Shown piece after piece: positions 54,247 through 57,764 of a stretch of DNA of 64,000 nucleotides (the first letter of the stretch is position 1; the number at the start of each line of letters is the position of its first letter). Under the pieces are notes generated by a model that saw only the letters and a program-made list of their open reading frames with translations, ran no database searches and had not been told where the DNA came from. The stretch is from a virus (Duplodnaviria; Heunggongvirae; Uroviricota; Caudoviricetes): IMG/VR virus record IMGVR_UViG_3300025009_000056. The stretch is one strand, 5' to 3'. A program made the position numbers and the translations under genes.

Positions 54247-55110
54247 TTAGTACGTTCTAATCATGTACTCATGCTCTTTTATCCATTGCTCCTCGGCATC
54301 GTATCGTGATGGATACAGTAATTTACCACTACTATCCGTCAGTCTTTGGTATTTTTTTAAATCCTTTTCAAAATCCAAAAGATAGTTTCTACATGCACCT
54401 TTGTATTCATCCTCGGAAACATCGAAAAATCTATCATCGGTAGGACTGCAATAAACAGGATTTCTTACATCTCCACTAAGAAACCGCTTACTAACTATAA
54501 TCTCTGCGAGTTTGACAATCTGGTAGTTTGGAATACGGTTTTTATATCTATCAACATTATCACCCTGCTTATGCATACGCAGGTAGTTCATATTTTCCCA
54601 CATTGTCGTCGTTACCTTAGATAATGTCTGTAACAGAATAATCATGTCCATATTTTTATGTCGCAGCGTAATAAGCATGTCAAGAATCATGTCTGAATTC
54701 TTATGCGTGATATACTTATTAATATCTTCCGCTACAAACAAACCGTATTTGAAATTATCAGCAACGCATCGGATTGTTTTCGTGAAATCATTAAACTCAA
54801 ACGGCCTACCATTCTTTTTCACCGGAATAATACGTCTCGCTTCCACTATTTCACTGCTAGCAAACCTGCGTATAATTTCGCCACGCCTAAAATCATCGGG
54901 TTCATCCACATTGAAATCTAGGCTGCGATATTTCACATACTGAGGGTCATTGTTAACGTCAAAAATTAAAACCTTACGGCCTTTTCTACCTGACGAAAAA
55001 TCCGTCTGTAAATAAAGGTCTATTTCCTGAATCGTTCTATATGATTTCCCTACACCCTTTTGTCCAGTGACAACAGTGAGGGCACATTCTCTTGCATCAC
55101 TCATATCCAA
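54247..55110 (-). CDS. FtsK/HerA-superfamily (A32-like) genome packaging ATPase
   Basis: Walker A GQKGVGKS, LIFDVN, Walker B LFVAED, TLRH arginine finger, ILLQ sensor. Confidence 0.8.
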   Translation of the reverse strand: MDMSDARECALTVVTGQKGVGKSYRTIQEIDLYLQTDFSSGRKGRKVLIFDVNNDPQYVKYRSLDFNVDEPDDFRRGEIIRRFASSEIVEARRIIPVKKNGRPFEFNDFTKTIRCVADNFKYGLFVAEDINKYITHKNSDMILDMLITLRHKNMDMIILLQTLSKVTTTMWENMNYLRMHKQGDNVDRYKNRIPNYQIVKLAEIIVSKRFLSGDVRNPVYCSPTDDRFFDVSEDEYKGACRNYLLDFEKDLKKYQRLTDSSGKLLYPSRYDAEEQWIKEHEYMIRTY

Positions 55111-55855
55111 AAATTTGTTTTTTATTCAACGGCTCATTAGCATCATCCATGCGTCCAGACAGACCAGCTTTTTTCCGTTGTATTTTGGTTAACAAATCCG
55201 GTATGTATATAGCGCCGTATTTATTAACCAATTTTCTTGCAACTCTGTAATTTGAACACGTCTTGTCATCCCAAATAGCCTCATCGTGATATTTCAATGA
55301 ATGACAAAAACCGATTCCTGAAAAATGAAATATCTCCGGAGGTTTATTCCAGTATTCGAGTTGTGGTATAACCTTATCTTTGAAATCAACAAGCCACATC
55401 AACACTTTATCCGGATTCTTTTCAAACTCATCAACTATTATCTGCGCTGCCCCCTGTTTAGAGAAACAATCATCATCGTCCAGATAAACAACGGCCATTT
55501 CAGATAGTTTGTTCGGATACTCATTTTTTGCCTCTTCGAGAAGCATATTCAAATGTAAATTATACGGAGCGTTCTGCAACCCATATGTTATAGAGTATTG
55601 CTCATAATTCACAGTTCTTTCATGCCGCTCTTTTTTATCCCACTTTTTATGACTTGTCTGAAATAGACTAATTTTAAGGTTTGGATAATTTTTCAACGCA
55701 GATTGAACGTAAGGCAAATCACTATCCCGCTCATAACACACAAACAAATGAATGTTTTTCACGTTAATCTGATTAGCAACGGACTTAACGAGTCCGCTAA
55801 AATAATTAGGTCTACGTGTTGTTCTGGTTAATATAACGAGTTTTGTGTTATCCAT
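55097..55855 (-). CDS. GT-A (GT2-like) glycosyltransferase
   Basis: ILTRTTRRP..LVKSVANQ, VYLDDDD. Confidence 0.75.
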   Translation of the reverse strand: MDNTKLVILTRTTRRPNYFSGLVKSVANQINVKNIHLFVCYERDSDLPYVQSALKNYPNLKISLFQTSHKKWDKKERHERTVNYEQYSITYGLQNAPYNLHLNMLLEEAKNEYPNKLSEMAVVYLDDDDCFSKQGAAQIIVDEFEKNPDKVLMWLVDFKDKVIPQLEYWNKPPEIFHFSGIGFCHSLKYHDEAIWDDKTCSNYRVARKLVNKYGAIYIPDLLTKIQRKKAGLSGRMDDANEPLNKKQIFGYE

Positions 55856-57764
55856 TTTTTCTAAAGCTATCGAAAGGTGCTAAAATATACTTTTTGGAAT
55901 TATCAAGCGACATGCAATGGTCTGAAAAATCTTTGTCTGCCGCAGCGATAGTTTCGAAAGTCGGAGTTAATTCATCTATCGTCAATCCCTCCGGATGCGT
56001 TGTAATAAGCAATCCATAAACATCAGAAACACCCACGACCTCGCAAGTCGAGTAAGCACCAATCACTAGCGGCTCACCATCCTCGACCGGATATTGCAGT
56101 TGCTCAGATGAAACAAATTCACCCACGTTGAAAATAATCTGGTCAGCATCCTCTACCTCCTGAGTGTTTTCGTTTTCCACAACGGATTCTTTTTCTTCAG
56201 GTGTTTCATCATCGAGTTTTTCACCCAGAAATGTTTCGATTATATCCTGCGCCATCTCTCTTTGCTTTTCTACGTCAATGACGTTTTGCTCTTTATTAGG
56301 CTCTGGTTTTTTTTGCTCGATAGGCTTTTCCTCTACGGGTTTTTGCTCCTTTTGCGCCTGTCTTGACTGCTGGATTAATTTGTTTCTGTAATCTATTAAT
56401 TCTTTTGGTAGAATATTATCACTCAACCAACTCAGCGCAAGGTCTTCCATAGTTGGCACTTGTTCTCCTGACATTTCAAGCATCGGTTTCATCATATCTA
56501 TAAACACCTGTGTTGAAACTTTAAACTCATCATAGGTACAACCTGTAATATATCCACCGTCCTCTTCAGGAACAAAGTAAACAGGATTAGACATTCTGAT
56601 TAATTGTGTAAACTCATCATCACCCTCATTCCATTTATTAGAATCATATCTGGTCTCAAAAATATGCTGAGAAACAAATACCTGAAACAACATTTCCGGC
56701 GAATTAGTGTTGCGTAGAAATTTATCCAGATAATTACTGGACTGCATAAACATCGGGTCGTGCATAAACCTGAGAATAGTAGACCTGTTTACAAGTTTCT
56801 TATTCATGTTTGTCATTACACCAACGTTTGCGGATATATCAACACCGCTTCCATCTTTTGATTTTTTCAGAATAATATCAATATCGTCTTTTTTTATATT
56901 TAATCCGGAGAACATAAGCAAACAATCCTGCATGTTTTCACACATGTATCTGATTATTTCCGAATAGGTCTTACCCTTATTATCTACACAAACAACAGAA
57001 CCCTCTTTGGCCATACGCAAACCCATGTATGGTAAAATTTCGACATTCTGGTTTTTAAATTTTGCAAGCTGAAAAACATCGCTATCATCGGTTATGACGA
57101 AAGCATTTTTCCCATATGTTTTTGCATAATCCAATCCAACAAAAATATTGTATCCAATAATTGAATCAACATCGAAACAGCTCACGGTCTCAAGGTGCGT
57201 TATTTTAAAACGCTCCTTTTTATTTTCTGTTACCGGAGACTGTGGTACAACCTCTTTTATCTCAGACGGGATTTCAACAGCCGGAGTTTCCTGTTTGGTT
57301 TCCACCTGTGCCTGCTTCTTTTCCAGCTTTTTCTCGCTTGGTTGTTTTTTTACAGGCTCTTTTTTATCGACTGGTTTTTTATCAGCGACTTTTTCCACCG
57401 GAGTATTATTCTCGGCAGGTTTTGTTTCCAGATTGCTATCACTGATAGACTCATTTATTTTATCATGGAATTCCTCTCCGTCCAGTGGTGGAAAAAAATG
57501 CTGTTCTGTTTCAATAACAGCGGCATTAGTTTTTTCATCCACTACTGGCTGCTGAGTATCCACCACCTGTCCCTTAATTTTAGTTTCAAGGACAACGGCA
57601 TCCTGAATTACCTGCTCGTCGTTAATAACCGGAGTTACGGGTTCCTTTTTCTCCACTACTTTTTCTGCGTTTTTATTTTTTCTTATCTTTTTCTCTGCCG
57701 GAACTTTTTCTTTATTTTTTCTTGCTCCGCCATAAAGGTTCGTGGGCTTGCTATTGTCTTCCAT
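55848..57764 (-). CDS. large acidic protein containing an inactivated packaging-ATPase-like domain
   Basis: IRYMCENMQDCLLMFSGLN, ILRFMHD, SNPVYFVP align to ATPase IRCVADNFKYGLFVAEDIN, YLRMHKQ, RNPVYCSP. Confidence 0.65.
   Translation of the reverse strand: MEDNSKPTNLYGGARKNKEKVPAEKKIRKNKNAEKVVEKKEPVTPVINDEQVIQDAVVLETKIKGQVVDTQQPVVDEKTNAAVIETEQHFFPPLDGEEFHDKINESISDSNLETKPAENNTPVEKVADKKPVDKKEPVKKQPSEKKLEKKQAQVETKQETPAVEIPSEIKEVVPQSPVTENKKERFKITHLETVSCFDVDSIIGYNIFVGLDYAKTYGKNAFVITDDSDVFQLAKFKNQNVEILPYMGLRMAKEGSVVCVDNKGKTYSEIIRYMCENMQDCLLMFSGLNIKKDDIDIILKKSKDGSGVDISANVGVMTNMNKKLVNRSTILRFMHDPMFMQSSNYLDKFLRNTNSPEMLFQVFVSQHIFETRYDSNKWNEGDDEFTQLIRMSNPVYFVPEEDGGYITGCTYDEFKVSTQVFIDMMKPMLEMSGEQVPTMEDLALSWLSDNILPKELIDYRNKLIQQSRQAQKEQKPVEEKPIEQKKPEPNKEQNVIDVEKQREMAQDIIETFLGEKLDDETPEEKESVVENENTQEVEDADQIIFNVGEFVSSEQLQYPVEDGEPLVIGAYSTCEVVGVSDVYGLLITTHPEGLTIDELTPTFETIAAADKDFSDHCMSLDNSKKYILAPFDSFRKNG

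Follow-up and report, generated by a model that had tools for sequence, protein, structure and literature searches.

Does a viral packaging ATPase work beside an inactivated relative of itself, and what could such a relative do? The question was raised by a locus at positions 54,247 to 57,764 in a stretch of 64,000 nucleotides (referred to here as the window) from the IMG/VR virus record IMGVR_UViG_3300025009_000056 (Caudoviricetes). The locus encodes a 287-amino-acid (aa) ATPase (54247..55110) and a 638-aa protein (55848..57764), with a 252-aa glycosyltransferase-like gene between them (55097..55855). All coordinates refer to the window, and features lie on the minus strand unless the plus strand is given. 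A preliminary description of the sequence had paired an active packaging ATPase with an inactivated copy and had proposed a heteromeric motor or a portal-like adaptor. We found that the core of the 638-aa protein matches the ATPase family at the profile level while key catalytic motifs are lost, and its assignment as a dead ATPase paralogue is well supported by the profile comparison. Our preferred reading, to which we give a probability of about 45%, takes the 638-aa protein for a catalytically dead relative of the viral B204/HerA-type ATPase and gives it the role of a non-catalytic accessory of the packaging vertex.

By its motifs and predicted fold, the 287-aa protein is an intact FtsK/HerA-type packaging ATPase, with genome packaging predicted from the fold, the motifs and the gene context. 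Its reading frame starts with TTG at 55110, whereas the database form of 285 aa starts with ATG at 55104. The translation contains a Walker A motif, GQKGVGKS (55042..55065), which is nearly invariant in the family, and a Walker B motif, LFVAED (54724..54741), whose E and D occur without exception in 12 of 12 sequences. An RH pair (R148/H149; 54658..54663) is invariant in the family alignment. When Walker A was scored as [AG]xxxxGK[ST], the pattern was present in 161 of 163 family members, both exceptions being truncated sequences, and the Walker B pattern hhhED was present in 160 of 163.

The AlphaFold2 model of the ATPase was good, with a predicted local distance difference test score (pLDDT) of 84. 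In Foldseek, the closest solved structure was the STIV2 packaging nucleoside triphosphatase (NTPase) B204, which occupied all of the top 10 rows (E = 1.7e-5), and in the structure comparison by VIA B204 ranked first of 48,161 chains (Z = 16.0, root mean square deviation [rmsd] 3.0, 189 of 204 residues aligned), followed by VirB4, DndH-C and HerA at Z 13.7-14.6. The active packaging ATPase of the preliminary description is thus present, with intact Walker A and B motifs and B204 as its best fold match. In Pfam, Zot was barely above its cutoff (20.6 bits versus 20.3), Pox_A32 was below it (15.7 bits versus 22.8), and the HerA domain DUF87 was matched in 7 of 12 ATPase relatives (best E = 1.8e-7). 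The sequence search of solved structures returned nothing useful for either the ATPase family or the 638-aa family.

The ATPase family is large, with 914 proteins at E = 1e-5 or better in a profile search. The genome scan found relatives at 50 genomic loci, nearly all of them in Bacteroidota genomes and metagenome-assembled genomes (MAGs), several from groundwater. The complete chromosomes of Formosa sp. A9 and Glaciecola amylolytica also carry the ATPase module. Fluviicola chungangensis has a related ATPase locus too, and in all three species the locus lacks the 638-aa gene. The protein database assigns both the ATPase and the 638-aa protein to one contig of 195,945 bases. MAG contigs with close ATPase loci (L009, 211,156 bases; L011, 212,134 bases; L013; and L030) are near the size of this 196-kb virus contig, and these "bacterial MAG" contigs may in fact be viral genomes that were binned together with those of their hosts. 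Contigs that binning had assigned to Pacearchaeota, Saccharibacteria and Parcubacteria (L047, L051 and L053) also carry ATPase relatives, with 28-29% identity.

The window encodes a second small P-loop NTPase of 217 aa (8307-8960, plus strand). Its Walker motifs read GGRGSGKT (A) and IIIDD (B), and a hydrophobic segment lies at its C-terminal end; in Pfam, a match to Pox_A32 (E = 7e-4) stayed under the cutoff. Both this protein and the packaging ATPase have an "hhhDVNxE" strand after helix 1, and hhalign between the two gave 6-10%.

We then compared the ATPase family with the family of the 638-aa protein by hhalign. A profile of 12 ATPases against a profile of four sequences of the 638-aa family gave a probability of 54% (P = 1.3e-4, score 41), with ATPase residues 109-245 on residues 269-425 of the 638-aa protein. 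When 163 ATPases were compared with the seven-member 638-aa family, the probability was 85.7% (E = 5.5e-6, score 50.8), and residues 77-244 were aligned with residues 232-424 (56493-57071), the confidently aligned part of the core. With the window's own clade left out, the remaining 159 ATPases gave 90.9% (E = 1.1e-6, score 56.6). The score therefore rises with a broader ATPase profile, from 41 with 12 sequences to 51-57 with about 160.

Three ATPase subgroups matched the same region of the 638-aa protein with scores of 54.0, 36.9 and 32.7 (probabilities 88.9%, 27.9% and 13.6%), only the first being significant alone, and a fourth subgroup (L005-L020 type) gave a nonsignificant score of 18.9. 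The alignment extends past the generic nucleotide-binding core into the C-terminal part of the ATPase, where the motif NPVY...DE[YF]K is found.

Several controls set the scale for these scores. Forty column shuffles gave a mean of 16.5 (standard deviation 2.9, maximum 25.4), the reversed profile gave 18.3, and four unrelated neighbour-gene families gave at most 18.7. Among real proteins, the maximum was 30.4 for 67 other proteins of the window against the 638-aa profile and 28.6 for 32 large open reading frames (ORFs) of related loci. A true homologue, PRD1 P9, reached only 28 against the smaller ATPase profile. Because the best of the 67 unrelated window proteins had a P value of 0.0018, the hhalign P values appear to be about 8-fold optimistic here.

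By these profile comparisons, the relationship between the 638-aa core and the ATPase family is very probably real. The hhalign check proposed in the preliminary description was significant with family profiles (85.7-90.9%, with controls at no more than 30.4), while pairwise BLASTP was not. Derivation of the 638-aa protein from the ATPase, as had been suggested, is backed by the controlled comparison and is compatible with the weak RecA/ASCE-like model described below.

Inspection of the aligned motifs shows what the core has retained and what it has lost. The hhalign alignment reproduced the register given in the preliminary description: the Walker B strand LFVA of the ATPase was aligned with LLMF, LRMH with LRF[H/M], and NPVY...DEYK with NPVY...DEFK. 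The Walker A pattern was found in none of the seven members of the 638-aa family, and the RH segment of the ATPase fell opposite an alignment gap. The described loss of Walker A and of the RH finger was therefore confirmed, the arginine-finger role of RH being assumed.

The fate of the Walker B acidic pair is less simple. After the LLMF strand, the canonical acidic position holds SG, and a DD pair occurs 7 residues later, at the start of a helix in the model. It had been stated that ED was replaced by SG, which holds for the canonical position; in the hhalign alignment, however, seven residues (SGLNIKK) are inserted behind the Walker B strand, and ED is paired with the displaced DD. The replacement is thus one of two readings. 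With its P-loop, Walker B acidic pair and RH segment gone, the core is predicted from its sequence not to hydrolyse ATP.

The 638-aa protein was divided into four parts. Residues 1-185 (57210..57764) form an N-terminal arm rich in K, E and P that aligns poorly among homologues; in the model, the start of this region (residues 175-185) has pLDDT below 50, and disorder of residues 1-174 is suggested by composition and poor alignment. Residues 186-470 (56355..57209) probably form a degenerate ASCE/RecA-like domain, as judged by hhalign, AlphaFold2 and VIA. Residues 471-543 (56136..56354) form an acidic disordered linker (pLDDT below 50, isoelectric point [pI] 4.2, net charge -14), and residues 544-638 (55851..56135) form a small Tudor/KOW/CAP-Gly-like beta-barrel (pLDDT 79-92). 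The "long acidic disordered arms" of the preliminary description apply to the linker only: the N-terminal arm has mixed charge (34 K+R, 37 D+E), with a basic pI (9.0-9.4) in 4 of 4 homologues, and the C-terminal segment is a folded barrel.

The AlphaFold2 model covered residues 175-638 and was built with seven sequences (mean pLDDT 61.9, with values below 50 at residues 303-356, 375-394 and 472-543). Residues 199-304 (pLDDT 74-85) form a beta-alpha-beta sandwich with the same order of elements as in the ATPase model. The first-ranked VIA match of the 638-aa model was HerA (Z = 7.2, rmsd 3.4, 129 aligned), and B204 was matched at Z = 5.8, with model positions 17-162 on chain positions 8-153. 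The list consisted mostly of RecA-like motor domains, including DndH-C, FlaH, KaiC, RecA and UvsX, all of which recur in the list of the ATPase. The C-terminal barrel matched NusG KOW (Z = 6.3, rmsd 2.4, 55 aligned), CAP-Gly (Z = 6.3) and Tudor (Z = 5.9). No Pfam or PHROG family was assigned to the 638-aa protein, and Pfam at E up to 10 returned only noise.

We further examined the layout of the locus. The neighbouring ORFs of the 638-aa protein, the 252-aa protein and the ATPase overlap each other by 8-14 nucleotides, so that stop and start codons overlap. A hairpin followed by a U-run lies 40 nucleotides past the ATPase stop codon (54161..54210) and probably marks the operon end; its stability was -19.5 kcal/mol (z = -6.5), and none of 200 shuffles was equally stable. 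Such a terminator-like hairpin was found only past the ATPase, the last of the three genes. Since the ORFs overlap and the hairpin with its U-run follows the last stop codon, the three genes appear to close one operon. The middle gene has a weak PHROG match to glycosyltransferases (E = 0.0037), the Pfam scan assigned its product to no family, and the viral-contig search gave no relatives of it. The 252-aa protein also carries a YLDDDDC stretch.

Few relatives of the 638-aa protein came to light. Among 1.84 billion representative proteins, an exhaustive phmmer search returned three cluster representatives, a word-index search returned four proteins of the family, and the metagenome-contig search found homologues on two short contigs (L002 and L003), while none were found in the viral-contig or genome-contig searches. 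The family alignment has 60% mean column identity and many invariant core residues, which we take as a sign of selection. On both contigs a glycosyltransferase-like gene follows the 638-aa homologue, and the 252-aa gene is the best-conserved gene of this segment, with about 60% identity in both.

In the related ATPase loci, on the other hand, the gene order is different. Conservation of the pair in relatives had been named as a check in the preliminary description, and the 638-aa gene was present in 0 of the 51 related ATPase loci examined. One family of about 300 aa supplies the gene immediately upstream of the ATPase in 39 of 42 related loci, and this family corresponds to the 255-aa gene of the window (57788-58555; hhalign 90.8%, E = 1.2e-6). 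The next gene upstream in relatives (about 152-160 aa) corresponds to the 160-aa helix-turn-helix (HTH) gene of the window (58555-59037; hhalign 93.2%, E = 2.9e-7), whose product has a DnaA_C-like domain (Pfam Bac_DnaA_C, E = 3.7e-6, under the family cutoff) and may be the partner through which the packaging ATPase recognises DNA.

The gene order of the relatives indicates that the ancestral arrangement was HTH gene, 255-like gene and ATPase, and that the 638-aa and glycosyltransferase-like genes are a clade-specific insertion between the last two. The insertion sets this clade apart in what is a large family of virus-like elements of Bacteroidota. Since the 638-aa gene is absent from the related loci, the ATPase motor family works without the 638-aa protein. 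We also considered whether relatives encode an analogue of it: the upstream gene of about 300 aa and 32 larger upstream ORFs were neither analogues of the 638-aa protein nor ATPase paralogues.

Several results weigh against our reading of the 638-aa protein. At the level of single sequences, BLASTP of the ATPase against the 638-aa protein was not significant (E = 1.7), nor were searches with a hidden Markov model against sequences (E = 0.5-5), in which three ATPases matched the same stretch of the 638-aa profile each time. As a single sequence, the window's ATPase was outside the 12 best of 67 against the 638-aa profile, and its own four-member clade alone gave a nonsignificant score of 22.9. 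Because the own-clade profile gives no signal, a recent tandem duplication is not supported; the 638-aa core is no closer to the clade of its neighbour than to distant ATPases. At the level of structure, all VIA matches of the core have Z below 8, a range that the tool flags as possibly a common arrangement; the non-P-loop folds of RNase J and aminotransferases occur in the list at Z 5.3-6; and Foldseek had no hit in PDB or BFVD that reached E = 0.001. The low-confidence segment at residues 303-356 coincides with the LRF[H/M] motif. At the level of gene context, there is the absence from related loci described above, and contigs L002 and L003 both end ahead of any ATPase position.

Given Z values below 8, other folds nearby and the Foldseek null, the fold evidence is compatible with an ATPase origin but not decisive. 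Profile or structural similarity was the point on which the preliminary description had made its own proposal depend: the profile similarity is significant, and the structural match is weak (best Z = 7.2).

The role that we propose is as follows. The core (residues 190-430, approximately) would keep the strands and family-specific C-terminal elements of the ATPase, having lost the P-loop, the Walker B acids and RH, and a disordered N-terminal arm rich in lysine, an acidic linker and a small C-terminal beta-barrel would have been added to it. It may dock on or beside the ATPase ring via its retained ATPase-like surfaces, and its arms and barrel may reach DNA, the capsid or the membrane. We infer the binding to the ATPase and the location at the vertex by analogy with known systems.

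The packaging ATPases of membrane-containing viruses (PRD1/STIV/A32-type) are thought to form single-species rings helped by unrelated small factors. A dead paralogue encoded next to the motor would show, in nature, how the gene of a viral motor can be turned to structural use. It would also offer a specific candidate for the adaptor that connects motor, capsid and membrane and is poorly understood. A full-text literature search, with subscription journals outside its coverage, found no description of an inactivated packaging-ATPase paralogue; the one paper in which the two terms occurred together was about a kinesin-like protein. What is new here is a PRD1/STIV-type packaging module with an acquired dead ATPase paralogue bearing extra domains.

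The alternative to be taken most seriously, which we consider rather unlikely, is that the 638-aa protein is a dead ATPase relative whose job is unrelated to the motor. It could be an internal virion protein, a scaffolding or DNA-coating protein, or an accessory of replication or recombination; its arms and barrel would then bind DNA or proteins, and its gene position would be a trace of its origin. The basic N-terminal arm of the homologues and the Tudor/KOW-like barrel are consistent with such a job, and Tudor/KOW-type barrels bind nucleic acid or peptides in known proteins. The 638-aa gene is also dispensable for the wider ATPase family, and its upstream neighbours include the DnaA_C-like HTH gene and a RusA resolvase. 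However, the gene shares an operon, with overlapping codons, with the ATPase. Since the ATPase is accompanied by the HTH and 255-aa genes as fixed partners in those 39 of 42 loci, the neighbourhood appears to be a packaging or assembly module rather than a replication module.

Less likely still is a portal-like adaptor evolved from the motor, in which the dead ATPase duplicate would co-assemble with the active ATPase as a mixed or stacked ring. Here, for the first time, a viral packaging motor would have taken on its own dead paralogue as a structural partner. As for a heteromeric motor in the strict sense, an obligate mixed motor is unlikely because the 638-aa gene is a recent addition to the module and is absent from related loci; an accessory or adaptor fits better. 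Complex prediction for the ATPase and residues 190-474 of the 638-aa protein scored 0.00 in two runs, which is no answer and is informative neither way.

It is also conceivable, and in our view improbable, that the 638-aa core is no paralogue of the ATPase at all but a different three-layer alpha/beta domain, which could be helicase-like, RNase J-like or new and would have been matched through a generic fold or by chance. The optimistic hhalign P values and the Foldseek result leave room for this explanation, as do the many SF2-helicase and some non-P-loop folds within 1-2 Z units of the best match and a weak ESM Atlas lead from the core to a 5'-3' exonuclease N-terminal domain (0.91-0.92, recognition below the mark). 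A chance match would have to account for scores of 51-57 where 99 real proteins, four families and 40 shuffles did not exceed 30.4, for three ATPase subgroups converging on the same region (with only one significant alone and the fourth at 18.9), and for an alignment that takes in family-specific C-terminal motifs.

Finally, that the 638-aa protein is still an enzyme or nucleotide binder, with new residues replacing the P-loop, is most improbable: the glycine-rich loop KSKDGSGxD that follows the Walker-B-equivalent strand is invariant in 4 of 4 sequences (K301, S302, K303, D304, G305, S306, G307 and D309), but it matches no known motif or family (Pfam, E up to 10) and lies in a low-confidence part of the model, and its invariance is weak evidence because only 4-7 sequences are available.

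Downstream of the ATPase, a 37-aa hydrophobic ORF comes first, then the gene for a 222-aa capsid-like protein, and then many genes for small membrane proteins. The 37-aa ORF (53936-54049), between the ATPase and the capsid-like gene, has one hydrophobic helix, and upstream of it (54095-54130) is a putative promoter-like stretch, TTGACA-18-TATCTTTG, for which we take TAnnTTTG to be the Bacteroidota -7 box. The ESM Atlas gave nothing usable on the fold of the 222-aa protein. This protein (53241-53909) and a 229-aa protein (59820-60509) match the same proteins of about 285 aa in related loci (11 and 6 loci, respectively), and for this reason the two look like paralogues. Elsewhere in the window, an IS605 OrfB/TnpB-type transposase with a Cas12f1-like TNB domain lies inside the phage genome (7082-8239, plus strand), and a 385-aa protein (62829-63986) has an LPD11 domain (large polyvalent protein-associated domain 11; E = 1e-34).

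How do the two proteins compare with known systems? Among the FtsK-HerA ATPases STIV2 B204, PRD1 P9 and poxvirus A32, the 287-aa protein shares the fold and motifs of B204, while the 638-aa core is related to these ATPases at the profile level only. Unlike them, the 638-aa protein has no Walker A, Walker B acidic pair or RH, and it adds disordered arms and a barrel.

Rings of active and degenerate P-loop paralogues are found in the F1/V1 ATPase (alpha/beta), in RAD51 paralogue complexes and in EccC. The likeness to the present pair is that a catalytic subunit is accompanied by a degenerate homologue, co-assembly being hypothetical here. The difference is that the partners in those rings usually retain a nucleotide-binding P-loop, which is deleted in the 638-aa protein. 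The PDB entries of EccC and of the RAD51 paralogues appeared only as fold matches of the ATPase in VIA.

A close parallel in gene position is PRD1, in which the order is P6-P10-P9-(ORFi)-P20-major capsid protein-P22-small membrane proteins. The series P6-P10-P9-P20-major capsid protein is paralleled here by the 638-aa gene, the 252-aa gene, the ATPase, the 37-aa membrane ORF and the 222-aa gene, and the 37-aa ORF occupies the slot of P20, a small membrane protein for packaging. P6, for which no ATPase origin is known, has 166 aa, compared with 638 aa here, and hhalign found no sequence similarity between P6 and the 638-aa protein (0.1%), which is a further point against our reading. In a PRD1 study (PMC4267777), P6 and the ATPase P9 together make up a 12-fold portal complex, and it was proposed that P6 helps mount the ATPase at the unique vertex. 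Like P6, the 638-aa protein would be a soluble partner without ATPase activity, its gene lies two genes upstream of the ATPase gene with one gene between them, and a similar function is predicted here.

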